Assembly (NCBI GenBank): GCA_964629085.1
Contig: CAZVPR010000002.1
Span: 20,428-84,427 of the forward strand
Direction: 5' to 3'
DNA from: an uncultured Anaerolineales bacterium
Lineage (GTDB): Bacteria; Chloroflexota; Anaerolineae; Anaerolineales; UBA11858
DNA: 64,000 nt
The notes under the pieces are model-generated. The model worked only from the letters and a program-made list of their open reading frames with translations. It was not told the DNA's origin and did no database searches. Positions 11,412-38,409 of this stretch are shown here, in pieces (position 1 is the stretch's first letter; the number at the start of each line of letters is the position of its first letter). The translations under genes and the position numbers were made by a program.

Positions 11412-11971
11412 AAATCATCCTTTCGTATATTGAGACGGATTATTTCGAAAAACAAGTGTACCTTAGGCCATACGCCTGCTTTTCGTTTTACTACTGCGAA
11501 GGCGTTGGCCTGAGCAGTCGATTTCTGAAAATCTTAGTTGCTTCCAAAAGCCAAGTAGGGTAAATAGACAAAATACTGTTCAATGCTCTCCGTGCAATTG
11601 GGTTGTGTAACCGTGACCGGCGGCATCTCCCAGGCAAGCAGCCTGGACTATGAATAGGGTGTATTTCCAGTTTGATTTCTAAAGAAGGGGGAAATTCATG
11701 CCATGGACAATCACCCTCGCCCTCAATGGAACAATGATTAAACGAAAGATCTTTGACAACATAACGAAGGCCCTCTATCATTTAACGTTTTTATAGCTTG
11801 CCGGGGGCGTAGCGCAGGTATTATACAATAACAATGGCAAAAGCATGAGATCGAAATGTATTTATGACAATATTTGTCAATTTTATGCTATTGCCCATCC
11901 GAAAAATTTAAATAGGGGTGGTTATTTCGAGAAACATTCCCACATATAAATCTTACAACTTTAAAACAGCA

Positions 11972-12005
11972 TCTAAACAATTTCTGAACATCTTTTGGAT
12001 AAAGT
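11972..12005 (+). promoter_or_regulatory. Activator-box promoter 1: tandem CTAAACA-ATTT-CTGAACA plus TAAAGT hexamer
   Basis: TCTAAACAATTTCTGAACA (11972-11990) is identical to 33292-33310 and has 1 mismatch to 36768-36786. The 7-bp direct repeats start 11 bp apart (11973, 11984). A 9-nt spacer precedes TAAAGT (12000-12005). No -35-like hexamer is present. Confidence 0.6.
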
Positions 12006-12079
12006 TAGAACCAAGATAAATAGGTATCAGGCAACAACCGAATACCTAATAACGAATACTCAACGCCAAGGAGCGTTTA

Positions 12080-14350
12080 ATGACTACAGGAACACAAACC
12101 CTACCAACCAATACAGCCCGATCACAGGCCATGTCGATCAATTATCAAAAGATCATCGGTGTGGTAAGTCTGTTAGCCATTATCCTTCTGGGCGCGTTTT
12201 TTCGATTTTACAAACTTGGCGCTTACACCATTGGAAATACCTATTATGCGGCCGCAGTCAAATCGATGCTGACCTCCTGGCACAATTTCTTTTTCGTTTC
12301 CTTCGAGCCAGGTGGCACTGTGACGGTCGATAAGCCCCCCTTGGGATTTTGGGTTCAAGCGATTTCCGCCTACTTTTTTGGAGTCAATGGCTTTGCCCTG
12401 GCCTTTCCGCAGGCCCTGGCCGGGACGCTTTCCATCCCGGTGCTCTACCATCTGGTGCGCAAAAATTTCGGCATTTGGGCCGGGCTGATGGCAGCCCTGG
12501 TTCTGGCGTTAGTCCCTGTGACCATCGCCACCGAACGCAACAATACCATCGACGGGTTGCTTGTCTTCGTGCTGCTGTTGGCAGCCTGGGCTTTTCTCAA
12601 AGCTACTGAAACTGGTAAAACCCGTCATTTAATTCTGGGCGCAATTCTGGTGGGTCTGGGATTCAACATCAAGATGCTGCAAGCCTACATGGTGCTGCCG
12701 GCGTTCTATGCGCTGTATCTCTTTGGCGCTCGCAATGCCTGGTGGCAACGCATCCTACAGCTTGGCGCAGCAACCATCGTTTTGCTGGCGGTGTCCTTCG
12801 CCTGGGTGATCGCCGTTGACCTGACCCCTGCTGACCAGCGTCCTTATATCGGCAGCAGTGATAACAATACGGTTATGGAACTCATCGTCGGGCATAACGG
12901 ATTGAGCCGTTTGGGATTAAATGATAATCGCGGCCCCGGTGGGGGGGATGGCCCCAGGGATGGCGCTGCTCCCGGGGGCAATGCGAACCTACCTCAGGCG
13001 GGCTTCACCCCTCCCGGGCAGAATTCTGCTCCCGGTGGGAATCAAACCAATAACCGTCGACCGCCACAAGAAGCCTTCGATGCCTGTACAGGGCTGGCAG
13101 TTGGGGATGCCTGCACCGTCGACCTCCCTAATCAAGCTATAGAAGGCATCTGTTTTGCCCCCTCGCAAAATGAACTGGTCTGTGCTCCAGAAGACAGGCT
13201 GCCGCAACAGGCCAATGCCAATGCGCCCGGGCAGTTCCAACCGCCCTCCGGGGGTAACGGTCCAGGGAATGATGGCCCCGATGGAAACCGAGGCCCATCG
13301 ACAGGCGCAGGACAGCGCAATATGAACGGCGGTGAGACTGGGCAAGCGGGCGTACTGCGTCTGTTCGCAGAACCCCTGGTCACCGAGACCAGTTGGCTGC
13401 TCCCCCTGGTGCTTTTAGGCTTGCCTGTTGGTTTGATTGCTGCGGGCTGGTCATGGCCGCTGAACGGCAAACACAAGAGCATCTTGCTCTGGGCTGGTTG
13501 GCTGCTGCCTGCCATGGCATATTTCAGCTTTACCACGGGGTTGTGGCACCGTTACTACCTGATCATGTTGGGGCCGCCCATCGCTGCACTAGTTGGCATC
13601 AGCCTATGGAGCCTGGCAAAACACTGGCAGAAGAATCCCACCCTCGGTTGGATCCTGGCTGCCCTGCTGACCAGCCTGACCATCATCTTCGAAATCTACA
13701 CCTTCCAAAATTACCCTGATTATTCCACCTGGGTGAGCGTGATTTCCATCCTGATCGGGCTGGCAGGAATCGGCTTCCTGGCCATCAGCAAGTTGATCCC
13801 TCTGCACAAAATCGGCTTGAGCCTGCTGTTGCTGGCCATGTTGGTGGCCCCTTTCGCCTGGTCATTGCTGACCACACTCAACACCAACCCCAACGTAGGT
13901 CTGCCCACCGCTGGGATTTCAGCCTCCGACCAGACTCGTTCATCCTTCATGACCCCAGACGTATCTACGCTCAGCGCCAATGGGCAGGCAATTTTAGAAT
14001 ACACATTGGCCAACTCCGAACCCGACAATTATTTGCTGGCAACGCTCAATGCCCGCGGTGCAGCGCCCTATCTTCTGGAAAGCGACCGTAAAGTGCTGAC
14101 CTTCGGCGGCTTCGGTGGCCGTGATGACGTGATCGATCTGAATGAATTGATCGCTATGATCGATACTGGCGAACTACGCTACATCCTGGGCATCCCCCAA
14201 CAGAAACAGGAGATCGCTCAATGGATGGTCAATAACTGCTCCGTCGTAGACATTCCTGGCGTGACAGTCACAAATTCAGCCAATAATCAGAACAATCGCC
14301 CCGGACCTGGCGGGCAATCCAGTGAGGTGCTTTATGACTGCGGAAAGTAG
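12080..14350 (+). CDS. GT-C fold glycosyltransferase, family 39/83 (PMT/ArnT-like) with a large low-complexity insertion
   Basis: 756 aa with many TM helices. VDKPPLGFW motif in the first external loop. SD AAGGAG at 12068-12073. A G/P/N/Q-rich insertion of about 145 aa (nt ~12915-13350) contains the 4-Cys module PPQEAFDACTGLAVGDACTV...LVCAPED. Confidence 0.75.
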   Translation: MTTGTQTLPTNTARSQAMSINYQKIIGVVSLLAIILLGAFFRFYKLGAYTIGNTYYAAAVKSMLTSWHNFFFVSFEPGGTVTVDKPPLGFWVQAISAYFFGVNGFALAFPQALAGTLSIPVLYHLVRKNFGIWAGLMAALVLALVPVTIATERNNTIDGLLVFVLLLAAWAFLKATETGKTRHLILGAILVGLGFNIKMLQAYMVLPAFYALYLFGARNAWWQRILQLGAATIVLLAVSFAWVIAVDLTPADQRPYIGSSDNNTVMELIVGHNGLSRLGLNDNRGPGGGDGPRDGAAPGGNANLPQAGFTPPGQNSAPGGNQTNNRRPPQEAFDACTGLAVGDACTVDLPNQAIEGICFAPSQNELVCAPEDRLPQQANANAPGQFQPPSGGNGPGNDGPDGNRGPSTGAGQRNMNGGETGQAGVLRLFAEPLVTETSWLLPLVLLGLPVGLIAAGWSWPLNGKHKSILLWAGWLLPAMAYFSFTTGLWHRYYLIMLGPPIAALVGISLWSLAKHWQKNPTLGWILAALLTSLTIIFEIYTFQNYPDYSTWVSVISILIGLAGIGFLAISKLIPLHKIGLSLLLLAMLVAPFAWSLLTTLNTNPNVGLPTAGISASDQTRSSFMTPDVSTLSANGQAILEYTLANSEPDNYLLATLNARGAAPYLLESDRKVLTFGGFGGRDDVIDLNELIAMIDTGELRYILGIPQQKQEIAQWMVNNCSVVDIPGVTVTNSANNQNNRPGPGGQSSEVLYDCGK

Positions 14351-14786
14351 AACAAGTAACTTGGAAGGTGATAAAAACCTCCCAGGTTTAGAAACGATCA
14401 TTCAAGCCATCAAATATGCCACTGTAGGCGTATCCAACACGCTCATCGACGCGGCAGCTTACTTTGCCCTCACCCGTTGGCTGTGGCTGGGATCGCTGCC
14501 GGTGTTAGCCAAAGGAATAGCCTATGCCATCGGCATGGTGAACAGTTTCTACTGGAATCGAAATTGGACCTTCAAAAGTAAGGGCACGATATATCGTGTC
14601 CCAACCTGGAAGGCGGCTTTCCTGTTCACCCTGACACACATCGCGGCCTTGGGAATCAATGCTGGCGTGATGTTCTTGGGGCTAGAAGTCTTGGCGTTGA
14701 GTGAAATTCTCTCGCTAATTCTGGCAACCGGTGCTGCCTTCGGCTGGAATTTTATTTTGAACAAGTTGGTCGTTTTCAAGGCATGA
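14334..14786 (+). CDS. GtrA-family membrane protein (polyprenyl-phosphate-sugar flippase-like)
   Basis: 150 aa from ATG 14334 (SD GAGG 14324-14327), overlapping the GT39 stop. 4 TM segments and the YAIGMVNSFYWNRNWTFK signature of GtrA-like proteins. Confidence 0.8.
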   Translation: MTAESRTSNLEGDKNLPGLETIIQAIKYATVGVSNTLIDAAAYFALTRWLWLGSLPVLAKGIAYAIGMVNSFYWNRNWTFKSKGTIYRVPTWKAAFLFTLTHIAALGINAGVMFLGLEVLALSEILSLILATGAAFGWNFILNKLVVFKA

Positions 14787-14899
14787 TGATTCACCGCTAA
14801 GACGCAAAGAGCGCCAAGATGATTGTTTTTTCTACATTTTGTTTTCTTTAGAATTAACTTCGCGATCTTCGCAACTTCGCGTTAAACAAGGAGTAAATC

Positions 14900-15631
14900 A
14901 TGAAATCTTTATCCATTGTCATACCCGCTTATAATGAAGAAGCCAATCTGCACACCACCATAGCAGAGATATCCAGCGTGCTCTCTGACATGCCTATTGA
15001 TTATGAAATTATCCTGGTCAATGACGGCAGCCGCGACCGTACTGGAGAAATTGGCCGTGCGTTAGCCAAATCTGTGTACAACTTCCGTCTGGTAGAGCAT
15101 TACCCAAACCGCGGTTATGGCGGGGCGTTGAAATCTGGCTTCGACGCCGCGCAAAAGGAGTTGATCGCTTTCTTCCCCGCGGACAACCAATTCCACTTTG
15201 GTGAGATCATTGTCCTACTTGAACGCATGATCGTGACAGAAGCGGCTATTGTCTGCGGCTACCGTGCTCCTCGGCGCGATCCCTTGATGCGTAAAGTCAA
15301 CGCTTTTGGTTGGAACATGCTTGTCAGGGTATTATTTGGATATCTATGTCGTGACATCGATTGTGGTTTCAAACTCTTCCGGCGCGATATTCTCAACTGT
15401 GTGAACATCACATCTGATGGCGCGCTGATCGATACCGAATTCTTATCCAGCGCCCGACGCCTGGGTCTTCGCATCGAAGAGGTACCCGTGACTCACCGCC
15501 CGCGTGTTGGGGGCGAAGCAACGGGCGCAAATCTGCCTGTGATCATCAAAGCATTTCGCGATTTATGGAAATTGCTGCAGGAGCAGGCTGCCAATAACGG
15601 CTACCTGAAATGGCGTTTTGGATTACGGTAG
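14900..15631 (+). CDS. Family 2 glycosyltransferase, polyprenyl-phosphate sugar synthase type (DPM1/GtrB/ArnC-like)
   Basis: 243 aa. LSIVIPAYNEE, VNDGSRD and the FFPADNQ acidic motif of GT-A family 2. SD AAGGAG lies just upstream. Confidence 0.85.
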   Translation: MKSLSIVIPAYNEEANLHTTIAEISSVLSDMPIDYEIILVNDGSRDRTGEIGRALAKSVYNFRLVEHYPNRGYGGALKSGFDAAQKELIAFFPADNQFHFGEIIVLLERMIVTEAAIVCGYRAPRRDPLMRKVNAFGWNMLVRVLFGYLCRDIDCGFKLFRRDILNCVNITSDGALIDTEFLSSARRLGLRIEEVPVTHRPRVGGEATGANLPVIIKAFRDLWKLLQEQAANNGYLKWRFGLR

Positions 15632-15677
15632 AATAACTATACCCTTTTATCAGTATCATCCAATAAAGGAGTCATAG

Positions 15678-16610
15678 ATGACCAATAAATCTTCTCTTTC
15701 ACGGCGAGATTTTCTCGGCTTGATGGCAATGGGCGGATTCAACTTGACTTTTGGGAAGGCTTTACTAACGCTTACAGGCACCCAAGCCACATCAACGGGA
15801 ATTGATATGGCCATAGCCCGCGCGACCAGTTACAAACCGGCTGCCCTGGTTGAAGCAGCCATCGCCGCGCTGGGCGGCATGGAAAACTTCGTCAAGCCGG
15901 GCGATCATGTCATCATCAAGCCCAATATCGTCGCTGCCGATTATTCCTATGAATATGCGGCTTACACAAACCCTGAAGTGGTCGGCGCGCTCACGGCGCT
16001 GTGCGTCGCTGCTGGCGCCGGAAGTGTGCGTATGATGGATTCCCCTTCCACTAGCTCCGGTGAACAGGCTTACGCCCGCAGCGGCATCGGCGAGGCAGTG
16101 AAGGCAGCCGGTGGTCAAACCGAAGTCATGAGCCAGATCAAGTTCCGCAACGTCGATATTCCCGAGGGGCGCGATATCAAAAATTGGACGATTTATGGGG
16201 ATGTGCTCGATGCGGATGTGCTCATCAATGTGCCAATTGCCAAACACCATTCACTTGCCAAACTGACTCTGAGCATGAAAAACCTGATGGGTGTGATCAC
16301 AGATAGGGGAAAATTTCACCGCAAATTGGGGCAGCGCCTGGCCGATCTGGCCAGCCTGGTCCGTCCCACGCTGACGATTATGGATGCGGTCAACATCCTG
16401 ATGAATCGCGGCCCGCGCGGCGGCAACCTCAACGACGTCAAAGCGATGAACACAATCATTGCCAGCCAGGATTTCGTTGCCACTGGGGCCTACGCGGCCA
16501 CGTTCTTCGGCAAGACCGGCTCAGATATCGACGCACTGCGCCTCGGTGCTGAGATGGGGCTGGGCAGCCTCGATCTGAACGGCCTTTCGATCGAAGAAAT
16601 CAGCGTTTAA
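15678..16610 (+). CDS. Tat-exported DUF362-domain protein
   Basis: 310 aa. Twin-arginine signal SRRDFLGLMAMGG. The VKPGDHVIIKPNIV and PIAKHHSLAKLTLSMKNLMG blocks are typical of DUF362. Confidence 0.7.
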   Translation: MTNKSSLSRRDFLGLMAMGGFNLTFGKALLTLTGTQATSTGIDMAIARATSYKPAALVEAAIAALGGMENFVKPGDHVIIKPNIVAADYSYEYAAYTNPEVVGALTALCVAAGAGSVRMMDSPSTSSGEQAYARSGIGEAVKAAGGQTEVMSQIKFRNVDIPEGRDIKNWTIYGDVLDADVLINVPIAKHHSLAKLTLSMKNLMGVITDRGKFHRKLGQRLADLASLVRPTLTIMDAVNILMNRGPRGGNLNDVKAMNTIIASQDFVATGAYAATFFGKTGSDIDALRLGAEMGLGSLDLNGLSIEEISV

Positions 16611-16621
16611 GTGTTGAAACC

Positions 16622-18193
16622 GTGAGCATCCGGGAAGCCCCATTCACACCACCCAAAGATCAGCGAAAAAAGTGGAGCCGCTGGCGTAGATTGCGTCAGA
16701 TCGTGCAAATTCTGGCTTTATTGCTGTTTTTCTATCTGCTGATTGTCAACTGGCGCGCCGGCGCGGCTTCTGCTCAATCGGGAATATTCTTCCGGCTCAA
16801 CCCGTTGACCGCGCTGACAGCTATGCTGGCCAGTCGAGCCTGGATTCCCAAGTTGGGTTGGGCGCTGATCACAGTAATGGCGACGTTATTGCTGGGTCGC
16901 GTGTGGTGTGGCTGGCTTTGCCCCCAAGGGACTATCCTGGAATGGATTCGCTTCCCTGGGGCTTATCAACGCTCAAACAGGATCGCGCCCCGCTGGAGGT
17001 CGGTGAAATATCTTCTTCTGCTGGTCATTCTCGGCATGGCATTGATGGGCAGTATGACACTGCTACTCTTCGATCCCATCACCATCCTGACGCGCTTCAC
17101 GTCCACAAGTTTATTTCCGGCGTTCAACGATGGCATCACCCAACTTGAGTTCGCGCTTTATCGATATCCGCTTTTCCAACCGCCCATCAATTGGATCGAG
17201 AGCAATCTGCGCGGGGTAGTCTTGCCCTCCGTTCAATCAGCATTCAGGCAAAGCGTCCCCATTCTGGCACTTTTTGCAGGTATCCTGGCGCTCAACGCGC
17301 TGGCAGATCGATTTTGGTGCCGGTACCTGTGCCCACTGGGCGGAATGCTGGGGCTGCTCTCGAAAATTTCTTTGTTCAGGCCGTTCATCACCACCCAGTG
17401 CAATCACTGCGATCACTGCCTGAGTGAATGCAAGCTGGAGGCTATTCAGGCACACGATGGATCGGATATTGCTCCGCACGAAATTATCATCTCGGAATGC
17501 ACCATGTGTATTGATTGTCTGGCCAGTTGTCCGGAGAGCGGCATCACGTTCAGGGGCCAAACACAGCCGGTTTATTCACAAGATTTCGACCCTGACCGCC
17601 GTCAGGCTTTGTTGTCTTTGGGGGCTGGTGCAGTTGGCGCTCTGCTCATCGGCACGGATGCGGCGACAAAATCGCCCAGCCCAAGCTTGATTCGTCCGCC
17701 GGGCGTCGAAGACGAAGATGATTTTCTGGCCCACTGCATCCGGTGCAGTGAGTGCATGCAAGTCTGTGCCACATCAGGTTTACAACCAACCCTATTCGAG
17801 GCCGGTTTGGAGGGACTTTGGACACCGACATTGGTGCCGCGGCTGGGCCCTTGTGATTACAGTTGCACAGCTTGTGGCGAGGTTTGCCCCAGCGGTGCCA
17901 TCCCCCTGTTGGATTTGGAAACCAAGCGCCAGCAAATTATCGGACTGGCCGTTTTGGATCGCAACCGTTGTTTGCCTTGGGCTTATGCCACGCACTGCAT
18001 CGTCTGCGAGGAAATGTGCCCGGTGCCGGACAAAGCCGTGCGGTTAGAAGAAGTCACCGTGATCGACCCATGGGGGTATGAGGTGATTGTGCAACAGCCT
18101 TTTGTAGTGCGTGATTTGTGCACTGGCTGCGGCATTTGCGAATTTCATTGTCCTATGGAAGCCCAATCGGCCATCCAGGTTCAACGCCGGTAA
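16622..18193 (+). CDS. Membrane polyferredoxin: NapH-like N-terminal half fused to a NapG/MauM-like C-terminal half
   Basis: 523 aa with a GTG start. Two CX3CP motifs (WCGWLCPQG, WCRYLCPLG) sit between TM helices. Cluster motifs CNHCDHCLSEC and CTMCIDCLASCP follow. An internal Tat-like segment DRRQALLSLGAGAVGALLIG is then followed by CIRCSECMQVC, CTACGEVCP, CIVCEEMCP and CTGCGICEFHCP. Confidence 0.75.
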   Translation: MSIREAPFTPPKDQRKKWSRWRRLRQIVQILALLLFFYLLIVNWRAGAASAQSGIFFRLNPLTALTAMLASRAWIPKLGWALITVMATLLLGRVWCGWLCPQGTILEWIRFPGAYQRSNRIAPRWRSVKYLLLLVILGMALMGSMTLLLFDPITILTRFTSTSLFPAFNDGITQLEFALYRYPLFQPPINWIESNLRGVVLPSVQSAFRQSVPILALFAGILALNALADRFWCRYLCPLGGMLGLLSKISLFRPFITTQCNHCDHCLSECKLEAIQAHDGSDIAPHEIIISECTMCIDCLASCPESGITFRGQTQPVYSQDFDPDRRQALLSLGAGAVGALLIGTDAATKSPSPSLIRPPGVEDEDDFLAHCIRCSECMQVCATSGLQPTLFEAGLEGLWTPTLVPRLGPCDYSCTACGEVCPSGAIPLLDLETKRQQIIGLAVLDRNRCLPWAYATHCIVCEEMCPVPDKAVRLEEVTVIDPWGYEVIVQQPFVVRDLCTGCGICEFHCPMEAQSAIQVQRR

Positions 18194-18375: not shown

Positions 18376-19002
18376 TTGAGTAGAATTATGTTGACCCAAA
18401 CAAAAGAAACATTGACTACAATGACACCGAAAAAAGCCCTGTCAATTCTAAAAGAAGGCAACCAACGGTTCGTGGAGAATCAGGTTGAAAAGCGCGATCT
18501 GTTGGAACAAATGCGCCAAACCAGCCAGGGGCAATTCCCGTTTGCCATAATCCTGGGATGCATTGATTCACGTGTCCCTCCAGAGCTAATTTTCGATTTG
18601 GGCATTGGAGATGCGTTCAGTATCAGGATTGCGGGCAACATTATCAACCAGGATATCCTCGGCAGTATGGAATTTGCCTGCAAAGTTAAAGGCTCAAAAC
18701 AGATCGTCGTGCTGGGTCACACAAGTTGCGGTGCTGTTCGAGGAGCACTCAATGAGGTTGACCTGGGCAATTTAACTGCTCTAGTTAGCAAAATAAACCC
18801 GGCGATTGAAGAAGTAAAAAAATTATCAAATAAAACCCAGGTCGATGTCGATGTCGACCAGGTTGCAGAAATGAATGTTAAAATGACTATCGAGCAAATC
18901 AAACGGAGAAGCCCAATTCTTCGTGAATTGTTTGAAAAAAACCAAATCGGCATTGCGGGCGCAATGTACGATGTGAGCACAGGCAAGGTTTCTTTCTTGT
19001 AA
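18376..19002 (+). CDS. Beta-class carbonic anhydrase
   Basis: Zinc ligands CIDSRV and GHTSCGAV, plus the KEGNQRF N-terminal block. The true start may be ATG 18388 or 18421. Confidence 0.85.
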   Translation: MSRIMLTQTKETLTTMTPKKALSILKEGNQRFVENQVEKRDLLEQMRQTSQGQFPFAIILGCIDSRVPPELIFDLGIGDAFSIRIAGNIINQDILGSMEFACKVKGSKQIVVLGHTSCGAVRGALNEVDLGNLTALVSKINPAIEEVKKLSNKTQVDVDVDQVAEMNVKMTIEQIKRRSPILRELFEKNQIGIAGAMYDVSTGKVSFL

Positions 19003-19044
19003 TTCGCCAGTTGTTTTACCAAATCAATTTCAAAGGCGCATTTC

Positions 19045-20121
19045 ATGCTGGAGTTTGAACATTCCCTATTTAAGTTATTGCTTCTGGTAGCGGTTTTGAA
19101 CGCCCGACCACCGGGACGCAAGTGGCTGCCGGCTATCATCGCCGGCGGTTTGTTGTTGGCCTTTCTTCCGCCCATAGTGACCGTGACCGTCCCCTGGGAT
19201 TTGGTACTCGGTCTGACCATTCCGCTATTGCTTTGGCAGAACGCCCGTCAGATCATCACTGCCCAATGGGTCGGCAGATGGAAAGATATCCTGATCTGGT
19301 TGGTAGCTGCGGCCTTGTTTGCGGTGGTATTTTGGAGCTTCAAAGGTCTGGAACCCTCAGTGGTGATCCTGTTTAGCCTGGTAGCTGCCAGCATGCTTTG
19401 GAGCGTCGGCAGGACGAAGAACACAACCAGCGTGGTCAGTTTGATCGGTCCCTTCACACTGATCTTTTTGCTCGCCGAAGTGGAGCCTTTGATTCAAAGC
19501 ACATCCCGTTATATTGGCGGGGTATTTAGCGGGTTGGCGATTGGCGCAGTAATCGCTTTGGGGGCGGTTCTGTTGAACAAGAGAAGCACGCCAAACGTTG
19601 GCAATGTTATTGCAATCGCTCAAATCTATCTGGCTTATGGTTTCGCCTTATTTGCCGGTGTTTCTGCCGTCGCTGCCAGTCTGGCCAGCGTGATTGTCTA
19701 TATCACTTTTGGCTTGTATTCAGACCTTTGGCCGGAAAAACGCGTCCAACCGACCCCTATAAATTCATGGGGCGGCTTTATCTATATCCTGGTAATCTTC
19801 ATCTTCCTTGGCTGGCAGGCACATTACCCACCCTCCAGCCTGATTTTTCTGGAAGTATTGGTTGGATTTGTGATCAGTTTATTTATCGCCCGGATTGGAC
19901 AATTCTTGAAATTAGATGCTTTCCCCGATGATCTCCCCCTTTGGCGGGTGGGATTCAAGGTGGCGTTGCTCCTGTTCCCAGCGCTATTAATTTGGCCTCA
20001 TGATACACTACAACAACCGGCATTGCTGGCCTATGCGTTTGGGATTGCGATCCTAAACCTGATCGTTGCCAGACTGACATTAACTTACTTTTTTGAAAGA
20101 ACTGAAGAAATTTACCAATGA
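19045..20121 (+). CDS. Polytopic membrane protein, distantly cation:proton-antiporter-like
   Basis: 358 aa with at least 9 hydrophobic helices. LGLTIPLLLWQNA resembles the LPPLLF block of CPA1 exchangers, but the match is weak. Its stop overlaps the ATPase start (ATGA at 20118-20121). Confidence 0.35.
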   Translation: MLEFEHSLFKLLLLVAVLNARPPGRKWLPAIIAGGLLLAFLPPIVTVTVPWDLVLGLTIPLLLWQNARQIITAQWVGRWKDILIWLVAAALFAVVFWSFKGLEPSVVILFSLVAASMLWSVGRTKNTTSVVSLIGPFTLIFLLAEVEPLIQSTSRYIGGVFSGLAIGAVIALGAVLLNKRSTPNVGNVIAIAQIYLAYGFALFAGVSAVAASLASVIVYITFGLYSDLWPEKRVQPTPINSWGGFIYILVIFIFLGWQAHYPPSSLIFLEVLVGFVISLFIARIGQFLKLDAFPDDLPLWRVGFKVALLLFPALLIWPHDTLQQPALLAYAFGIAILNLIVARLTLTYFFERTEEIYQ

Positions 20122-22868
20122 CAACATCGAACATCCCAAAACCGTGGCACACGTTTTCTGTGGAGACCACGCTCGAAAAACTGGCTGTTGAAACCGATAA
20201 GGGGCTTAGCCAGACCGAAATTACAAACCGTATAGAAAAGTTCGGTTTGAATGAATTGGTAGAACACGGGGCCAAAAACCCCTGGAAAATCCTGTTCGAC
20301 CAGTTCCGAGAGACCATGGTCGTGGTGCTGATCCTCGCCGCTATCGTATCGGCGCTGGTCAGCGACTGGAAAGACGCCATTGCCATCCTTGCCATTGTGA
20401 TCCTCAATGCCGTCCTGGGCTTCGTTCAGGAATTCCGCGCCGAGCAGGCTATGCAGGCGCTAAAGAAAATGGCCGCTCCATTGGTGCGGGTGCGCCGCGA
20501 TGGCAAAGTACTTGAAATCGAATCGGGGCAACTGGTGCCCGGCGACGTGATCTTGCTGGAGGCCGGCAACGCCGTTCCCGCTGACGCCCGGCTGATCGAA
20601 TCGGCCAGCCTGCGTGTTACCGAAGCCTCCCTGACCGGTGAATCCCATCCCATCGACAAAACGGTTGAAACCCTCGAGGGGGATGATTTGCCCTTGGGCG
20701 ACCGCCACAACCTGGTCTATATGGGCACGGTGGTCAATTATGGGCGCGGCGTGGCCGTTGTTGTCGAAACAGGCATGCAGACTCAATTGGGCCGCATCGC
20801 CGAATTGATCCAGTCCGTAGAGGGCGAACAAACTCCTTTACAAAGACGTATGGCGCAACTTGGAAAATCGCTGGCCTTTGCCTCACTGGGAATTGTAGCT
20901 GTGGTCTTCGCTTTGGGCTTAATGCGCGGTGAAGAGATCGGCGAGATGTTTATCACCTCGATTGCCATGGCCGTAGCCGCCATCCCCGAGGGCTTGCCCG
21001 CCGTCGTGACCATTTCCCTGGCTTTAGGCGCCCAACGTATGCTGCGCCGCCAGGCTCTGATCCGTAAACTGCCCGCCGTAGAAACCTTGGGTTCCGTTAC
21101 CACGATCTGCTCTGATAAGACTGGCACGCTGACTGAGAACCGCATGACCGTCACCATCCTGGATGTGATGGGTGAGACCGAACAAATCGATGCCATGCTC
21201 GAAAAGCACATTGCTGTGCTGGATGCTGAATTCCGCCCCAGCGAACGACCTCCCGTGCGCAGCCTGGGCCTGCTGCTCAAAGCGGCCGCCCTGGTCAATG
21301 ATGCTATTTTGCAGGAATCCCCCGAAGAAGATGATGCTTTCCGAGCGATCGGTGATCCTACCGAAGGTGCCTTGTTGATCGCGGCCGCCAAGACCGGCCT
21401 GTGGAAATCCGAACTGGATCAACGCTGGCCGCGCGTGGGCGAAGCTCCATTTACATCAGAACGCAAACGGATGACCACCGTTCACCAGGTCAATATCCCC
21501 ATCGATGCCCCCAGCGATGCACCCTGGCGAGACGCTCCCTATGTAGCGTTTTGCAAGGGCGCGGTCGATGAGATGCTTTCAATCACGGCCCAGGTTTGGG
21601 CTGGTGATCAGGCGGTACCCTTGGGCGATGAACTCAGAGAACGCATCCTGTCATCAAATAACGAGATGGCCGAAGACGGCCAGCGCGTGCTGGGGGTGGC
21701 TTTTCGCCCCCTGAACGAACTGCCTGAAAAAATCGATGAAGAATCGCTGGAAAAAGAGATGACCTTCATCGGCCTTACCGCCATGATCGACCCGCCGCGT
21801 CCTGAGGTTGAAGCTGCTGTGGATACCTGTCAGACAGCCGGCATCCGCCCGGTGATGATCACCGGCGACCACCCCCTGACGGCGCTGCGCATTGCCAAAG
21901 ACCTGGGTATCGCTGACGAAGACGCCCAGGCAGACAGCCAAATTCTTACCGGACAACAGCTTTCCCAAATGTCGGATGACGATCTTGAGGCTGTGGTTGA
22001 GGATGTCTCGGTTTATGCGCGCGTATCCCCAGAACACAAACTCAAAATCGTCCAGGCTCTGCAAACTCGCGGCCATATTGTGGCCATGACCGGAGACGGC
22101 GTCAATGATGCGCCCGCCCTGCGCCGCTCGGATATCGGCGTGGCTATGGGCATCACCGGTACAGACGTCTCTAAAGAAGCCTCTGATATGGTGTTGCTAG
22201 ATGACAACTTCGCCACCATTGTGCGAGCAGTCTCCGAAGGTCGTACGATTTACGACAACATTCGTAAATTCATCAAATACACCATGACCAGCAATGTGGG
22301 CGAGATTCTGGTCATGCTGCTGGCGCCTTTCTTTGGCATGCCGCTGCCGCTTACCGCGCTGCAAATCTTGTGGATCAACCTGGTCACCGATGGACTGCCT
22401 GGGTTGGCGCTGGGTCTGGAACCCTCCGAGCGGGATACCATGCGTCGTCCGCCTCACCCCCCCGGAGAAAGCATTTTCGCCCGCGGCCTGGGCGTGGCCG
22501 TCTTGTGGGTCGGGCCGTTGATGGGCGTCGTTGCCCTGGGTGTTGGCCTGTGGGGCTACCTGACCGGTAACCCTTATTGGCAAACAATGACCTTTACTAC
22601 CCTTACCCTGGCGCAGATGGGCAACGCGCTGGCGATTCGCTCCGATCACGACTCACTTTTCCAGATCGGATTGCTTTCCAACAAACCCATGCTTGGAGCC
22701 GTATTGCTGACCCTTGGCATGCAAATGGTGGTTACCTATTGGGGGCCGGCCCAAAATCTCTTCGGTACTCAGGCCTTGCCACCATTCGAGTTGGTCATCA
22801 GCCTGGCGGCCAGTACGCTGGTTTTCTGGGCCATCGAATTGGAAAAGCTCATCAAGCGGGGAAGATAA
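20118..22868 (+). CDS. P-type ATPase, type IIA (Ca2+-transporting, SERCA/PMCA-like)
   Basis: 916 aa. Motifs [15 protein letters not shown], phosphorylation site [18 protein letters not shown] and [11 protein letters not shown]. Confidence 0.9.
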
Positions 22869-25726: not shown

Positions 25727-25902
25727 ATTGACGGGCTCCTGTTTTTTGAGAGTTACTTTGTCAAATCTGCAAAAGCCCACTAAGTATACTCGATGCTAAC
25801 AAAACCTAAAAACCATCTAAATATCTTTTGAACTTCTCTTTGTTAAGATCATCAAAATTCAAGAATTTAGAATCTATTTCACAAGAAATCATAATCAAAT
25901 TT

Positions 25903-26009: not shown

Positions 26010-27650
26010 ATGCAAAAAACAAAAATGCTCGTTTTGGCTCTCGTACTACTCGTCAGCGGATTGGTGGCTCTCAACAACGCCCAATCCGCGGCCGCCTCAT
26101 CGCTGGCGGATATATTGGGTCAATTTACCAGCGAGGCTTGCCTCGACAATACAGCCGATGAGGGCCAGTGCAAAGATTGCTGCGACAGCCTTGATGCGGA
26201 CGGCAAAGCTCGCAAAGCCTGCCGCGATTCTTGCGCGGTACAGGATTTCGCTCAAAATATTGAATTGATCTCATTCGAAATCACATCTGTACTCGGACCT
26301 GGTGGCGACTACTCTGTTTGCTCGGCCAGCGGCGATGAACGTACCTGCAAGGATTGTTGTGACGATTCCAATTCAATAGCCGGCGGCGACCGGCGCTTTT
26401 GCCGCGATGCCTGTTCCGACGCAACCGGCGCACAGAACAACCAAAACCCCGCTCCACCCCCCGAGCAAGGACAACCACCCCAAGGTCAATCTCAAGGCCC
26501 CCGAGAAATGACTATCCAGCAAGCCATTTCCGATGAAGCCCAAATGAAGACCATCGCCTTTGACGCTTTGTCTTTCCTGACCGGAAGCTTGGGCGCCGAT
26601 TCCTTCTTCCCACCCGGAAAGGTGGCAGATTTCTGGGGTTTCCAATATTTGCGCGACAACGACCTCAGTGAGATGGGCCACAACACCGATTTCCTCACAA
26701 GTGCCGCGTTCAATATGCTGAACGTGCTGACACCTGCTCAGCGCGCCGAATTGATCGTGCTGGCCAAAAGCCAGGTGGATGAGATCAACCAGTATGGCTA
26801 CATGCGCTTCACCCTGATGGATGCTTTTCGGAGCTTGTTAGAAGGCGATCTGCCTGCTGGCACATCTGGGCTAAGCGAGGCGGCCGTCAAAGCTTACTCG
26901 TCAGATCTTTATCGCCTGGATGGTGAGATCAGCTTCGAGCGGGCGCAGGTGATGGGCAGCCTGTTGCACGCCCTGGATTCTGATCAACGCGCTTATCTGG
27001 ATGTTATGGTCGGTCAGGGTATGCTCGATTGGCCCGATGTAAATGAACCCGACGACATGCGCGGTTTGGCGCGCGATGTCAAGGTGGCCGTGATGACCTA
27101 CGCTGGCGATATGTTCAGTTGGTATGTCGGCTCTCTGGAAGCGGACGTCTACTTCTGCCCCGAGCGTCAAGGCACTTACTTCGGCGCTTTCTATATGAAA
27201 GACGCTCCAGCAGTCGGCAACCCCGGCTACAACATCGGCACCAACATCACCGCTGATTCGGGCCAGGCTTTGTTGGATACACTTAACCCAGAGCAGGCCA
27301 ATCTGATCACCAGCCTGGTGGATGTACAGCGCAGCGATCTGACTAGCATTGTGGACGTGCGCCAGCAAGTCGCAGTTGAACTGCGTAAGTTCATGGCTGG
27401 TGAATCCGCCGATTTGGCTTATGTACTCGGTCTGATGGAAAGATACGGAGAATTGGATGGCGCCATCGTTTATAACTACGCCAAGAATTTTGCCCGAGTA
27501 AAGCAGATGTTGAGCTCAGAACAACTGGCGCAATTGATGACTTTGCGAGAAGAATTACTTGGTGAGTTGATTTTCCCGTCTGGGGCTTATCTCTACTCTC
27601 AGCCCATCCCAATGCCAGAGATTGGGAATACGGACTTCTTGTTCCAATAA
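26010..27650 (+). CDS. Exported hypothetical protein with a duplicated N-terminal Cys motif
   Basis: 546 aa with a signal peptide. Two copies of C-K-D-C-C-D-x(n)-C-R-D-(S/A)-C (CKDCCDSLDADGKARKACRDSC; CKDCCDDSNSIAGGDRRFCRDAC). A Q/P/G linker is followed by a ~380-aa domain with no motif I recognise. Confidence 0.6.
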   Translation: MQKTKMLVLALVLLVSGLVALNNAQSAAASSLADILGQFTSEACLDNTADEGQCKDCCDSLDADGKARKACRDSCAVQDFAQNIELISFEITSVLGPGGDYSVCSASGDERTCKDCCDDSNSIAGGDRRFCRDACSDATGAQNNQNPAPPPEQGQPPQGQSQGPREMTIQQAISDEAQMKTIAFDALSFLTGSLGADSFFPPGKVADFWGFQYLRDNDLSEMGHNTDFLTSAAFNMLNVLTPAQRAELIVLAKSQVDEINQYGYMRFTLMDAFRSLLEGDLPAGTSGLSEAAVKAYSSDLYRLDGEISFERAQVMGSLLHALDSDQRAYLDVMVGQGMLDWPDVNEPDDMRGLARDVKVAVMTYAGDMFSWYVGSLEADVYFCPERQGTYFGAFYMKDAPAVGNPGYNIGTNITADSGQALLDTLNPEQANLITSLVDVQRSDLTSIVDVRQQVAVELRKFMAGESADLAYVLGLMERYGELDGAIVYNYAKNFARVKQMLSSEQLAQLMTLREELLGELIFPSGAYLYSQPIPMPEIGNTDFLFQ

Positions 27651-33291: not shown

Positions 33292-33325
33292 TCTAAACAA
33301 TTTCTGAACATGGTTTTGCTACTAT
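33292..33325 (+). promoter_or_regulatory. Activator-box promoter 2: CTAAACA-ATTT-CTGAACA plus TACTAT hexamer
   Basis: TCTAAACAATTTCTGAACA (33292-33310), 9-nt spacer TGGTTTTGC, TACTAT (33320-33325). ATG 33357 has SD AAGGAG. Confidence 0.6.
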
Positions 33326-33356: not shown

Positions 33357-34973
33357 ATGAATATCAAAAAGAAAACTCTATTCGCAGCAATGGCATTCGT
33401 TTTTGCGATAACAGCAAGCAATCTCGTTTTTCCTCTGGTCACTGTCGTTGCCAAAACCGTCGAAGCCATACCAGAAACAGAGCCTTCAGGCGATGTTGAA
33501 ACTCAGGACGCGGCGATATTCAGTTACCCCATCGTCGACACCGGACAAGAATACTGCTACAGCGATAACGGCAGTATCCCTTGCCCGGAGGATGGACAAT
33601 CGTATTACGGCCAGGATGGTCAGGTGATCGGCAATCAAGCCCGCTACCAGGATAACGGCGACGGCACTGTGACCGACCTAGTGACCGGTTTGATGTGGCA
33701 GCAGGACCCCGGCGAAAAAATGACCTATGCCGAAGCCGCTTCCGGCGCGGACAGCTTCAGTTTGGCGGGCTACAATGATTGGAGATTACCCACCATCAAA
33801 GAGCTGTATTCGTTGATTGATTTCAGCGGCACCGATGTCAGCCGCTGTGTTGAAGAGGGCACCTGCACGGGCAACCCCTTCATCGATACTGATAATTTCG
33901 ATTTCGAATATGGGGACACCGCCGCCGGAGATCGCATCATCGACTCGCAGTGGGCTACCAGCACGATTTACGAAGGCAGTGTTATGAACGGCTCCCAGGC
34001 CATGTTCGGGGTCAACTTCGCCGATGGTCGCATCAAGGGCTACGGCACGGGAGTAGGCCGCGGCGGTCAAGCAAAAGGTTTCTTTGTGATCTACGTACGT
34101 GGGAACACGAGCTACGGAGAGAACAACTTTGCCGACAACGGCAATGGTTCGGTTACCGATAACGCTACTGGCCTGACCTGGATGCAATCCGACAGCGCCC
34201 AAGGCTTAGACTGGGAAGAAGCTCTCAATTATTGCTCGAGCCTCGACTATGCCGGGATCAGCGATTGGCGGCTGCCCAATGCTAAAGAGCTGCACAGCAT
34301 CGTCGATTACAGCCGCTCTCCAGACACAACCAACTCAGCAGCCATCGATCCAATCTTCAATGTAACTTCGATTACCAACGAAGCTGGTCAGACCGATTAC
34401 CCCGCTTTCTGGAGCAGCACGACCCACGCAAACTCCAATGGAATGACAGGCGCCGGTGTATACATCAACTTTGGTCGCTCGATGGGCAACATGAACAACA
34501 ACTGGATGGATGTGCATGGTGCTGGCGCACAACGCGCTGAAATGAAAAGCGGTGATCCCTCCATCTATTCAACCGGCCACGGGCCGCAAGGCGACGCCGT
34601 TCGGGTCTACAACTACGCTCGCTGTGTGACCGGCGGCACGACGGATGAAGTGATCACCGGCGGTGAGATCGACCCCAACGCTGTTGCCAATTCAGAATTC
34701 GCAAGTGGGTCGCCGCAGGCGCAAGCCGGTCAACAGACTGGGCAGCCCTCGGGAAATAATCTGGCCGGCGCGGCTGGCAGCAACCAGCTTTCCCAGTCCG
34801 GGCCGCCTCAGGAAGCCATTGATGCCTGCACCGGTTTGAGCGCAGGCGCCACTTGCTCCGTAGGCCCTGGCAGTGGAACCTGTGAGAATATCCAGAATCA
34901 ACTAGTTTGTGTGCCGGAAGGCGGCCCTCCGGGAGGAGGGCAGGGTCCACCCCAAGGAGGTGGGCAGCCATAA
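33357..34973 (+). CDS. Exported DUF1566 (Lcl C-terminal domain) protein ending in the 4-Cys module
   Basis: ATG 33357 is preferred (SD AAGGAG). Signal peptide. Two DUF1566 blocks (TGLMWQQD...DWRLPTIKELYSL; TGLTWMQSD...DWRLPNAKELHSI). A Q/G/N linker is followed by PPQEAIDACTGLSAGATCSVGPGSGTCENIQNQLVCVPE. Confidence 0.75.
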   Translation: MNIKKKTLFAAMAFVFAITASNLVFPLVTVVAKTVEAIPETEPSGDVETQDAAIFSYPIVDTGQEYCYSDNGSIPCPEDGQSYYGQDGQVIGNQARYQDNGDGTVTDLVTGLMWQQDPGEKMTYAEAASGADSFSLAGYNDWRLPTIKELYSLIDFSGTDVSRCVEEGTCTGNPFIDTDNFDFEYGDTAAGDRIIDSQWATSTIYEGSVMNGSQAMFGVNFADGRIKGYGTGVGRGGQAKGFFVIYVRGNTSYGENNFADNGNGSVTDNATGLTWMQSDSAQGLDWEEALNYCSSLDYAGISDWRLPNAKELHSIVDYSRSPDTTNSAAIDPIFNVTSITNEAGQTDYPAFWSSTTHANSNGMTGAGVYINFGRSMGNMNNNWMDVHGAGAQRAEMKSGDPSIYSTGHGPQGDAVRVYNYARCVTGGTTDEVITGGEIDPNAVANSEFASGSPQAQAGQQTGQPSGNNLAGAAGSNQLSQSGPPQEAIDACTGLSAGATCSVGPGSGTCENIQNQLVCVPEGGPPGGGQGPPQGGGQP

Positions 34974-34974
34974 A

Positions 34975-35038
34975 CCCTCACCCCTTCTCGCTTGCGCTTG
35001 ACTCCCTTCTCCCAATGGGAGAGGGGCTGGGGTGAGGG
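34975..35038. repeat. Dispersed hairpin repeat family B, copy 2 (intercistronic)
   Basis: CCCTCACCCC (34975-34984) and GGGGTGAGGG (35029-35038) are exact reverse complements. The interior CCAATGGGAGAGGGGC is shared with 7321-7394. Confidence 0.85.
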
Positions 35039-35055
35039 CAAAAAAGGAGCTTGTC

Positions 35056-36636
35056 ATGAAGAAAAAACCCTTTACCATTCTAACCATTCTGCTCAGTTTA
35101 TCGATCCTGGCCTGTGTATTTGCAGAAACCGTTGCCGGACAAGTACTCACAGGCGCCGATGGTCATCGCCAGGACGCTGATATCTCTGAGAGTACTGATA
35201 ATAATTCATCCATCCCCCTTCTCCTGGATTTTCCCACAGATACTTCACAAGCCAGCAATCAAATCACAGACGGGTATTACCTCTTTTCACCAATTCGCTC
35301 TACCGAGACCTACCTGATGGACTCCAATGGAGTGGCTGTTTTCACCTGGCAGAGCGATTACACTCCCGGTCACGCGGTCTATTTCTTAGATAACGGCAAC
35401 CTGCTGCGATCCGGAAGCCTGGGCCGCGGTACCTTCAGTGCCGGCGGCGTGGGCGGGGTCATTCAGGAGGTCGCCCCCGATAACAGCGTGGTTTGGGAAT
35501 TCCAATACGCCGATGGCCTGGTCCAACAGCACCACGATATCGAGCAATTGCCCAACGGCAACATTCTGTTGATCGCCTGGGAGTTGAAGACCCGAGAAGA
35601 AGCTATCGCCGCCGGACGTGACCCCAGCTTGCTAGATGAGGGCGAACTCTGGCCGGATCATGTTGTTGAGGTGGATCCTGCCACCCATGAGATCGTCTGG
35701 GAATGGCATGTCTGGGACCACCTCATTCAGGATTACGACTCCAGCAAGCCTAACTATGGCATGGTTGCGGACCACCCTGAACGGATCGATCTCAACTATA
35801 CCGTCAACCGTAAAGCTGGTGCCGATTGGAACCACACCAACTCGATCGATTACAATGCCGACCTCGACCAAATCATCCTCAGTGTGCTGGGGTTCGGCGA
35901 GATTTGGATCATCGACCATAATACGACTACGGAAGAAGCCGCTGGACCGGCCGGCGACCTGCTTTATCGCTGGGGTAATCCCGAGGCATATGACACTGGA
36001 ACCGCGCAGGATCAGCAACTTTTTGGTCAGCATGATGCCCAATGGATTCCCACTGAGTATCCTGGCGGCGGCAACATCTTGATCTTCAACAACGGCGACC
36101 GCCGCACGCGGGCTTACTCCTCCGTGGACGAGATTATGCCCCCCCTTAACAGCGATGGCAGTTATGCGCTCACAGCGGGTACTGCTGATAAGCCAGAGAC
36201 CACAACCTGGTCCTACGCTTCCCCCAACGATTTCTACGCCGATCATATCTCCGGTGCACAGCGCCTGCCCAATGGCAACACGCTGATCTGCAGCGGGACC
36301 GACGGGCGCTTCTTCGAAGTGACTCCCGCTGGGGAAATCGCCTGGGAATACAATTATGGCGCCGAGGTCTTCCGGGTCTCGCAGATCGCTGCCGATCATC
36401 CTGGTTTGGCAAGCCTAGCTCTGCAACCTGGTGATGTGCTGATCGGTGAGAGTGGTGTTCGAAACCAAAGCTCTGGGGGCCAACTCCAGGACAATGGTTC
36501 CCCTCCGCAACCGGCGATAAACGCCTGCAATGGCTTGGTCGAAGGAGACGCCTGCACAGTTCAACTACCCAAACGGACGGTAAACGGTTCTTGCCAGACT
36601 ATTCAGAACCAATTGGCCTGCGCACCAGACGGATAA
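35056..36636 (+). CDS. Exported arylsulfotransferase-like beta-propeller protein ending in the 4-Cys module
   Basis: ATG 35056 (SD GGAG). Signal peptide with a lipobox-like ILAC. The blocks DNGNLLRSG, VQQHHDIEQLPNGNILLIAWE, NHTNSIDYN and LPNGNTLIC resemble the ASST beta-propeller family. The C-terminus is PPQPAINACNGLVEGDACTVQLPKRTVNGSCQTIQNQLACAPDG. Confidence 0.55.
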   Translation: MKKKPFTILTILLSLSILACVFAETVAGQVLTGADGHRQDADISESTDNNSSIPLLLDFPTDTSQASNQITDGYYLFSPIRSTETYLMDSNGVAVFTWQSDYTPGHAVYFLDNGNLLRSGSLGRGTFSAGGVGGVIQEVAPDNSVVWEFQYADGLVQQHHDIEQLPNGNILLIAWELKTREEAIAAGRDPSLLDEGELWPDHVVEVDPATHEIVWEWHVWDHLIQDYDSSKPNYGMVADHPERIDLNYTVNRKAGADWNHTNSIDYNADLDQIILSVLGFGEIWIIDHNTTTEEAAGPAGDLLYRWGNPEAYDTGTAQDQQLFGQHDAQWIPTEYPGGGNILIFNNGDRRTRAYSSVDEIMPPLNSDGSYALTAGTADKPETTTWSYASPNDFYADHISGAQRLPNGNTLICSGTDGRFFEVTPAGEIAWEYNYGAEVFRVSQIAADHPGLASLALQPGDVLIGESGVRNQSSGGQLQDNGSPPQPAINACNGLVEGDACTVQLPKRTVNGSCQTIQNQLACAPDG

Positions 36637-36757: not shown

Positions 36758-36801
36758 CTGAACAGCTTCTAAGCAATTTCTGAACAACCTTTTGCTATGC
36801 T
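36758..36801 (+). promoter_or_regulatory. Activator-box promoter 3: three in-phase repeats CTGAACA / CTAAGCA / CTGAACA plus TATGCT hexamer
   Basis: Repeats start at 36758, 36769 and 36780 (11-bp phasing). The 9-nt spacer ACCTTTTGC precedes TATGCT (36796-36801). ATG 36842 has SD AGGAGG. Confidence 0.6.
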
Positions 36802-36841
36802 TATAGCAAGATACCAAAGCACGTGTATGCAGGAGGATGTC

Positions 36842-38299: not shown

Positions 38300-38409
38300 A
38301 TGGTGGGAAGTTGATTGTTGATAATGGGCAGAATTGTGAGACACTGCCCACATGCTAACTTGCTTACTTGCCCACACGCCCACTTACAAACTTGCACTAT
38401 AATTAAACT

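Follow-up and report, generated by a model that had tools for sequence, protein, structure and literature searches.

A conserved, probable pho-box-like promoter of glycosylation genes in Anaerolineae and its candidate two-component regulator

We analyzed a stretch of 64,000 nucleotides (nt) from an uncultured marine Anaerolineales bacterium known only from metagenomes (contig CAZVPR010000002.1 of assembly GCA_964629085.1; hereafter, the window), in which a short direct-repeat box lies upstream of a gene string encoding a GT39-type glycosyltransferase, a GtrA-family flippase, and a GT2 glycosyltransferase. The analysis indicated, with a probability that we estimate at roughly 0.75, that the box is the operator of an activator-dependent, pho-box-like promoter, which is bound by the OmpR/PhoB-family response regulator encoded at 38410-39105 and drives GT39-GtrA-GT2. 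The motif, its architecture, its conservation across genomes, and its linkage to the regulator gene are directly observed and carry this reading. To our knowledge, next to nothing is known of how transcription is regulated in the abundant but largely uncultured Anaerolineae, and literature searches found no description of the motif or the regulon.

Direct repeats in place of the -35 element upstream of the GT39 gene

The core box is the 19-mer TCTAAACAATTTCTGAACA at 11972-11990, on the + strand. It consists of two 7-base-pair (bp) direct repeats, CTAAACA and CTGAACA, separated by a 4-bp A/T-rich spacer, and two further in-phase repeats lie upstream (Table 1), forming tandem direct repeats one helical turn apart (10-11 bp, here with an 11-bp period). 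The -10-like hexamer follows after 9 nt, and the site stands in place of a -35 element, at a fixed short distance (about 10 bp) from the -10. The sequence at the -35 position, 17 bp upstream of the -10, is ACAATT (11977-11982), which matches TTGACA at one of six positions; the family consensus described below reads ACAACT there and matches at two of six. No -35 element was seen when the window sequence and the family consensus were compared with TTGACA. From this architecture, we infer that 11972-11990 is the binding site for a dimer of an OmpR-family response regulator.

Two exact copies of the 19-mer (11972-11990 and 33292-33310) and one copy with 1 mismatch (36768-36786) are present in the window, all on the + strand, and are referred to as boxes 1, 2, and 3. 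Three matches at up to 3 mismatches were thus found, compared with 0.05 expected, and none of 100 dinucleotide-preserving shuffles reached three. Each box is followed after 9 nt by a -10 hexamer (TAAAGT, TACTAT, and TATGCT, respectively), with a TG at the extended -10 position before the hexamer in boxes 2 and 3. When the window was scored with a weight matrix derived from 35 orthologous sites of other genomes, exactly four positions stood far above the shuffle maximum of 5.1 bits (Table 1), all of them on the gene strand and upstream of genes. The additional promoter, at 25795-25849, was not among the boxes listed in the initial annotation of this DNA.

The loci of boxes 1-3 can be aligned within the window only over about 55 bp. 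Because their flanks do not align, the copies are not duplication remnants, and a local duplication or mobile repeat was ruled out as the origin of the box, in agreement with the initial annotation, which had argued against a duplication artefact. Its coordinates for box 1 (11972-11990), TAAAGT (12000-12005), and TAAAACA (11962-11968) are all correct, as are those of the gene string 12080-18193 with its 17-nt overlap and gaps of 113, 46, and 11 bp.

Conservation of the promoter in Chloroflexota

For comparison, we used 80 loci with GT39 relatives from species-representative genomes (designated L numbers) together with contigs of closer relatives. About 36 distinct Chloroflexota loci have a box with at most 2 mismatches at a distance of 24-318 bp ahead of the GT39 start, and their GT39 proteins share 42-83% identity with that of the window. 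The 36 unique orthologous sites gave the family consensus tttACa-aaat-..aAc.a-.aT-CTaAACA-ActT-CTgAACA-tCTtTttg.-TAtacT, with an information content that is high from -21 to +33 and about zero beyond. The two gene-proximal repeats, CTAAACA-ATTT-CTGAACA, are almost invariant. The degenerate third site of the initial annotation proved real, as a third in-phase repeat appears in this cross-species footprint, along with a fourth.

The position of the hexamer is equally constant: all 52 of the box matches with a TAnnnT at 8-10 nt carry it exactly 9 nt past the box, which upholds the proposed -10 assignment. In Chloroflexota loci, the 27 perfect box matches are without exception on the gene strand, and the sole perfect match on the minus strand, in a Clostridium locus, lacks a -10. 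Among metagenome contigs, the exact 19-mer was matched 19 times, 10 of them with TAnnnT at 9 nt; the genes downstream of these 10 matches are Lcl_C-like, NBR1-like, and GT39 genes and, in two cases (L109 and L111), the regulator gene. Other genes of the window also have orthologues with a box upstream, namely Lcl_C in nine loci (L015, L020, L025, L042, L083, L097, L103, L108, and L112) and the NBR1-Ig gene in L102, while the orthologue of the secreted protein p546 has its own box in L025 and lies inside the GT39 operon in L020. These data support the interpretation of the 55-bp cassette as a clean phylogenetic footprint of a putative regulator-dependent promoter that is conserved across the class Anaerolineae.

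Repeats of similar layout were also observed with other half-sites. In Clostridium (L070, L077, L081, L085, and L087), GT2-GtrA-GT39-regulator-kinase clusters are preceded by four in-phase repeats (TTGTAGT/TTGTGAT/CTGTAAC/CTGTGAC), about 10 nt, and TAAAAT. TTCACA-type repeats of the same geometry occur in other loci, among L071, L082, and L084 and L056, L061, L062, and L073 (Thermoflexales and others). The shared geometry suggests that the promoter design recurs across phyla with different half-sites.

A response regulator and kinase linked to the box

In the window, box 3 is followed by the NBR1-Ig gene, the regulator gene, and the kinase gene, in this order. Comparison with the other loci revealed that regulator orthologues (65-80% identical), together with a kinase, lie directly downstream of GT39-GtrA(-GT2) in 15 loci (L015, L020, L023, L026, L037, L038, L040, L042, L043, L044, L054, L055, L058, L083, and L092). 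A strong box stands upstream of GT39 in 14 of the 15, and L038 carries a variant site of the same geometry; loss of the box before GT39 with retention of the regulator, which the initial annotation had named as evidence against its proposal, was therefore not seen. In L043, GT39, GtrA, regulator, and kinase are contiguous, which looks like an autoregulated operon and may represent the ancestral arrangement. In L109 and L111, the regulator gene itself is directly preceded by a box.

The clusters of L013/L020 contain GT39 (70% identical to that of the window), GtrA, GT2, a p546-like gene, NBR1-Ig, GGDEF, Lcl_C, regulator, and kinase, in this order, with boxes before GT39, the GGDEF gene, and Lcl_C. 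This single cluster joins the two loci that lie 21 kb apart in the window. By uniting GT39-GtrA-GT2, NBR1-Ig, Lcl_C, and the regulator-kinase pair with several boxes, it favors the earlier suggestion that the glycosylation genes share a regulator with the genes at 33-38 kb.

The regulator combines a receiver and a Trans_reg_C domain, and its gene is linked to the sites in the genome. The recognition helix, ERTIDVHIRNLRTKIE, hardly varies among the orthologues. Co-variation with the half-site has one informative case, L037, in which HISNLR replaces HIRNLR and the variant site is GTTTACA-AAAT-CGTAACA; such cases are too few to count. The regulator reached no named equivalog cut-off, and its nearest models are MtrA, PhoB, RpaB, and YycF. 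It scored 225.6 bits against the PhoB model TIGR02154 (cut-off, 296.2) and 227.1 against MtrA (cut-off, 300), and the MtrB score was 162.7 (cut-off, 450), so neither a PhoB orthologue nor an MtrAB pair is indicated. Among solved structures, MtrA, RegX3, KdpE, and BaeR are nearest, with E = 7e-55 for MtrA and approximately 5e-28 for BasR chains. The best named model for the kinase is BaeS, and a domain scan of the kinase detected no PAS domain. Judging from the linkage and the autoregulatory placement, the regulator encoded at 38410-39105 most likely binds the box.

Two further promoter-like sequences were noted ahead of the regulator gene: a sigma-70-like match, TTGACA-17-GATTAT, at the end of the NBR1-Ig gene (38247-38275) and a perfect TATAAT (38396-38401) 9 nt ahead of the regulator ATG. 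Either could give basal, box-independent expression of the regulator and kinase.

Proposed mechanism and predicted regulon

From the sequence, we predict regulator binding, regulatory direction, start site, transcript extent, and signal as follows. The kinase (39117-40649) would sense a cell-envelope signal and phosphorylate the regulator (38410-39105), and head-to-tail regulator dimers would occupy the repeats, which stand in place of the missing -35 element, and recruit RNA polymerase. Transcription would start near 12012 and run through GT39-GtrA-GT2, and in this genome the transcript would very probably extend into the DUF362 and polyferredoxin genes. The same regulator would drive the gene of the Spy/CpxP-like secreted protein from 25795-25849, the Lcl_C and arylsulfotransferase-like genes from 33292-33325, and, from 36758-36801, the NBR1-Ig gene followed by the regulator and kinase genes, which would amount to positive autoregulation. 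The expected output is machinery that glycosylates the cell surface by way of lipid-linked sugars, made along with secreted or lipid-anchored proteins.

The glycosylation module is encoded by consecutive genes (12080-15631), in which GT2, GtrA, and a GT-C transferase occur together. GT2 is predicted to load a sugar onto polyprenyl phosphate, GtrA to flip it, and the GT-C enzyme to transfer it outside the membrane. The exported proteins placed under box control are Lcl_C/DUF1566, the arylsulfotransferase-like protein, the NBR1-type Ig protein, and p546. The last has a signal peptide, Cys-rich modules, and repeated L(T/N/S)xxQ motifs, and it matches PF07813 at E = 0.014, below the Pfam cut-off; many of the homologous proteins contain PF07813 and are annotated as Spy/CpxP-type chaperones, and a fusion to Lcl_C is present in some. 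The placement of the additional promoter before this Spy/CpxP-like protein suggests an envelope-stress regulon, and an envelope-remodeling or envelope-stress response would be the most coherent reading of the predicted output.

Table 1. Positions of the predicted regulatory elements and genes in the window
Feature	Position	Strand	Details
Distal (fourth) in-phase repeat CTTACAA	11952-11958	+	Fits family consensus tttACa, conserved at -21 to -16 from box start (36 unique orthologous sites)
Third in-phase repeat TAAAACA	11962-11968	+	11 bp upstream of CTAAACA (11973-11979); weakly conserved ..aAc.a at same position in orthologues
Core box T-CTAAACA-ATTT-CTGAACA (box 1)	11972-11990	+	Two 7-bp direct repeats, 11-bp period; 57.6 bits, weight matrix built without the window
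-10-like hexamer TAAAGT	12000-12005	+	9 nt after box; spacing family-wide, consensus TAtacT
Hairpin in predicted 5' leader of GT39 gene	12021-12048	+	-14.6 kcal/mol, z = -3.06; 0/200 shuffles as stable
Shine-Dalgarno AAGGAG	12068-12073	+	6 nt ahead of ATG; from sequence
GT39 (GT-C glycosyltransferase, PMT_2 + YkcB_C)	12080-14350	+	PF13231 + PF24878 profiles; four-Cys mini-domain in extracytoplasmic loop
GtrA-family flippase	14334-14786	+	PF04138 profile; 17-nt overlap with GT39 stop
GT2, polyprenyl-phosphate sugar synthase-like	14900-15631	+	PF00535; 113-bp gap before; weak matches to ArnC, AglJ, and PpgS models
DUF362 protein	15678-16610	+	Profile and motif; twin-arginine signal SRRDFLG; 46-bp gap before
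NapH-like/NapG-like fused polyferredoxin	16622-18193	+	Profiles; 11-bp gap before
Additional promoter GCTAACA / CTAAAAA / CTAAATA / TTGAACT	25795-25849	+	Repeats in phase, 9 nt, TAAGAT; 43.6 bits
p546, secreted	26010-27650	+	Profile and motifs; Cys-rich N-terminus; C-terminal domain with LTXXQ-type (Spy/CpxP-like) motifs
Box 2, exact copy	33292-33325	+	9 nt, TACTAT; 38.7 bits
Lcl_C (DUF1566) secreted protein	33357-34973	+	After box 2; four-Cys mini-domain at C-terminus
Arylsulfotransferase-like protein	35032-36636	+	Second gene after box 2
Box 3 CTGAACA-GCTT-CTAAGCA-ATTT-CTGAACA	36758-36801	+	Three in-phase repeats, 9 nt, TATGCT; 46.1 bits
Secreted protein with NBR1-type Ig-like domain	36827-38299	+	First gene past box 3
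OmpR/PhoB-family response regulator	38410-39105	+	Receiver (PF00072) + winged helix Trans_reg_C (PF00486); domain profiles
Membrane histidine kinase, HAMP-HisKA-HATPase	39117-40649	+	Uncharacterised extracytoplasmic sensor region; gene callers start at 39165
Weight-matrix site	11973	+	57.6 bits
Weight-matrix site	25817	+	43.6 bits
Weight-matrix site	33293	+	38.7 bits
Weight-matrix site	36769	+	46.1 bits

Alternative explanations and extent of the transcript

Several points weigh against the proposed activator promoter. The pairing of regulator and box rests on gene neighborhood and autoregulatory placement, and the regulator beside the canonical box in L030 and L034 is only 48% identical to that of the window. 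Within a locus, box and regulator show a statistically modest association (counts 14/17/1/12, p = 0.03), because the regulator is often encoded elsewhere, as in the window. The -10 of box 1 is a poor TATAAT match (4/6), its TG lies one base farther from the hexamer than in a canonical extended -10, and sigma-70-like promoter rules were assumed for Chloroflexota. In addition, internal promoters could be held by the T-rich GtrA-GT2 gap (113 bp) and by a weak sigma-70-like match at 15605-15634 (9/12). The divergent regulators of L030 and L034, together with 17 box-positive loci that have no regulator orthologue within reach, would also fit binding of the box by a different OmpR/PhoB-family regulator encoded elsewhere (for example, a global PhoB/PhoP-like or MtrA-like one), with the neighboring regulator-kinase pair as just one of its targets; the four TnAACA repeats with their 11-bp period resemble the Bacillus subtilis PhoP site, and MtrA and PhoB are the closest named models. 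We consider this unlikely, given the 15 loci with a 65-80% identical regulator and kinase immediately past the box-controlled genes, the box directly before the regulator gene in L109 and L111, the regulator scores under both the PhoB and MtrA equivalog cut-offs, and the finding that phosphate-acquisition genes follow no box. Less probable still is that the repeats form a repression operator at which the bound regulator occludes the promoter. The site overlaps -22 to -40, where bound proteins can block RNA polymerase, but the promoter has no -35 element, the fixed distance of 9 nt from box to -10 corresponds to the geometry of class II activation of the PhoB type, and positive autoregulation is commonly seen in two-component operons. 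That the element binds no regulator at all, being an extracytoplasmic function (ECF)-type promoter, a mobile repeat, or a leader RNA element, appears highly improbable. TGAACA holds the "AAC" typical of ECF -35 elements and four cassette copies occur in 64 kb; however, the -10 lies 9 nt from TGAACA and 20 nt from TAAACA, compared with 16-18 nt in sigma-70-family promoters, and this spacing rules out an ECF or sigma-70 -35/-10 pair. Four in-phase direct repeats are also unlike a sigma motif, inverted termini are absent, homology is limited to 55 bp, and the orientation always follows the downstream gene, at an orthologous position across the whole class. Conservation stops at the -10, which places the element outside the transcript, and Rfam gave no match in the window, so that a leader RNA or riboswitch was ruled out as well. 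A sigma-54 promoter, with TGAACA-N-TTTTGC likened to TGGCAC-N5-TTGC, was rejected, as the sequence lacks the GG and deviates by one base in spacing.

Under the activator reading, the extent of the transcript is a separate question. The GT39-GtrA-GT2 order is conserved in L011 and L015-L020, and the 17-nt overlap of GtrA and GT39 is kept in relatives, which suggests translational coupling. Downstream, the products of the DUF362 and polyferredoxin genes (15678-18193) resemble a module for iron-sulfur electron transfer on the extracytoplasmic side, regulated together with glycosylation. Between GT2 and DUF362, both L016 and L019 have an insert of about 150 bp with a separate box and -10, CTAAACAATTCCTGAATA-9 nt-TATGAT (box positions 4002 and 13700, respectively), whereas the window and L011 have 41-46 bp between these genes, without a box. 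The separate boxes of L016 and L019 support membership of DUF362 and polyferredoxin in the regulon, as the initial annotation had tentatively proposed. Neither gene is part of the cluster in L013/L020 or the P0009 contig, so they are an accessory rather than a core part. It is possible, though doubtful, that in this genome they, and possibly GT2, are transcribed from constitutive promoters of their own and that the operon ends earlier. The length and T-richness of the GtrA-GT2 gap, the match at 15605-15634, the absence of the pair from some clusters, and its existence as a separate transcription unit in L016 and L019 would fit such an arrangement. Against it, promoter-like matches in the region number 8 vs 8.2 expected in shuffles, no + strand terminator-like hairpins were found in the gaps 14786-14900, 15631-15678, and 16610-16622, and the folds of these three gaps are no more stable than those of shuffled sequence. 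The 55-bp cassette would not fit into the gaps of 46 and 11 bp, the separate unit of L016 and L019 has the same box, indicating that regulon membership is conserved, and the loss of the box in the window and L011 coincides with fusion to GT2. In this genome, read-through from GT2 into DUF362 and polyferredoxin is thus probable, the pair having become part of the upstream operon.

Comparison with known systems

The mechanism, an OmpR/PhoB-type activator site, is already textbook. Like the pho box of PhoB in Escherichia coli and of PhoP in B. subtilis, the box has 7-bp direct repeats with a 4-bp A/T-rich spacer and an 11-bp period, stands where a -35 element would be, and is separated by about 10 bp (here 9 nt) from the -10. 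The extra in-phase upstream repeats recall promoters with two pho boxes; the PhoP site consists of four TT(A/T/C)ACA repeats. The regulator likewise has a winged helix, and its recognition helix resembles that of PhoB. In contrast, the half-site is CT(A/G)AACA rather than the CTGTCAT of E. coli, the regulator stays under the PhoB cut-off, and its kinase differs from PhoR in the lack of a detectable PAS domain. Unlike in the Pho regulon, phosphate-acquisition targets are absent, and boxes precede GT39, Lcl_C, NBR1-Ig, DUF362, Spy/CpxP-like, and regulator genes.

The biological logic resembles that of PmrA/PmrB (BasR/BasS) and the arn operon (pmrHFIJKLM) of Enterobacteria. Both systems combine an OmpR-family regulator, direct repeats at the -35 region (to which binding is predicted here), and surface glycosylation through a lipid carrier, with a GT2 polyprenyl-phosphate sugar synthase, a small flippase, a GT-C transferase, and an envelope-sensing kinase. 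The regulator is not recognizable as a PmrA/BasR orthologue, as MtrA, RegX3, KdpE, and BaeR rank above BasR and no equivalog cut-off is reached, and the PmrA box, CTTAAT-N5-CTTAAT, differs from the motif of the window. Nor does the transferase qualify as ArnT: it is PMT_2/YkcB-like and scores 34.5 bits against NF009784 (cut-off, 567). Aminoarabinose biosynthesis genes, present in arn, are absent here. We know of no lipid A production in Anaerolineae, and the acceptor must therefore differ from that of the arn system. Taken together, the promoter appears to follow the pho box in design and mechanism and PmrA-PmrB/arn in biological logic, while belonging to neither family.

The gene content also matches the Gram-positive three-component glycosylation systems CsbB-GtcA-YfhO, YkcC-YkcB, and GtlA-GtcA-GtlB (review, PMC8035078), which consist of a GT-A/GT2 enzyme, a GtrA flippase, and a PMT_2 GT-C enzyme. 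The GT-C enzyme of the window shares the YkcB_C domain with YkcB but differs in an extra four-Cys loop module. In the passages searched of this review, the acceptor of B. subtilis YkcBC is given as unknown, and two-component control of such systems is not mentioned.

Common features with CpxAR-cpxP and BaeSR-spy are the kinase with BaeS as its nearest named model, the one member with LTXXQ motifs, and the autoregulation predicted for the two-component genes. Unlike in those systems, the predicted regulon is centered on a glycosylation module; all matches are far under the equivalog cut-offs, and the LTXXQ region of p546 is below the Pfam cut-off.

Functional implications

The results describe a concrete promoter architecture that is conserved across a class, a predicted regulator-operator pair, and a defined regulon. 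Its predicted members are the surface glycosylation machinery, secreted proteins of lectin-like and Ig-like type, and the Spy/CpxP-like protein, with a Tat-exported redox module added in some lineages; such a regulon would tie several "hypothetical" secreted protein families to one envelope response. It provides testable DNA-protein pairs for heterologous assays and a handle on the acceptor of YkcB-type GT-C enzymes.

A four-Cys mini-domain of about 40 amino acids, PPQEA[IL]xAC.GL..G..C.V....G.C......LVC.P, flanked by P/Q/G/N-rich linkers, is common to the extracytoplasmic loop of GT39 (approximately 13058-13190), the C-terminus of the box-2 Lcl_C protein (34806-34973), and p546-like proteins in relatives (L016, 10319; L019, 18861/19107); it has no Pfam match. 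In Chloroflexota proteins, the C-terminal domain of p546 is fused to Lcl_C or PEBP domains (among P0207, P0217, P0234, and P0237), and its fusions to Lcl_C link two families of the regulon at the protein level.

A speculative and rather unlikely extension is a "decorate what you secrete" module across Anaerolineae, in which one kinase would co-induce an O-glycosylation machine and its secreted substrates, joined in some lineages by the Tat-exported DUF362 redox module. The PMT-like GT-C enzyme, GtrA, and GT2 could then modify Lcl_C, NBR1-Ig, and the Spy/CpxP-like protein, all of which have P/Q/G/N-rich linkers, with the four-Cys mini-domain as a possible docking or recognition tag between transferase and substrates. 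If so, together with the Clostridia clusters and their different half-sites, it would represent a widespread, uncharacterized envelope-stress pathway of single-membrane bacteria.

Additional features around the GT39 locus

In relatives, the GT39 locus is syntenic with ion-transport genes (window, 18376-22868; L011, 16190-22232; P0009 contig), which encode an Mrp antiporter, a 358-amino-acid protein without a significant Pfam match, and a type II P-type cation ATPase. The weight-matrix scan found no box ahead of these genes in the window. The GT39 protein itself begins with MTT.TQTLPTN, which is conserved in orthologues.

Around the promoter, the motif CAAG(A/T)T lies about 20 nt past boxes 1-3 of the window and in L011 and L020, and is missing from the wider family. 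The leader hairpin at 12021-12048 is only partially conserved in L011. Upstream of the box, we observed a near-consensus sigma-70-like promoter on the + strand (11753-11781, TTGACA-17-TATCAT, 11/12) and a perfect palindrome, TGACAA-TAT-TTGTCA (11865-11879); the equivalent region of L011 contains TTGTCAT-N8-ATGACAA. The two elements of the window could be a second, box-independent promoter and the operator of another regulator.

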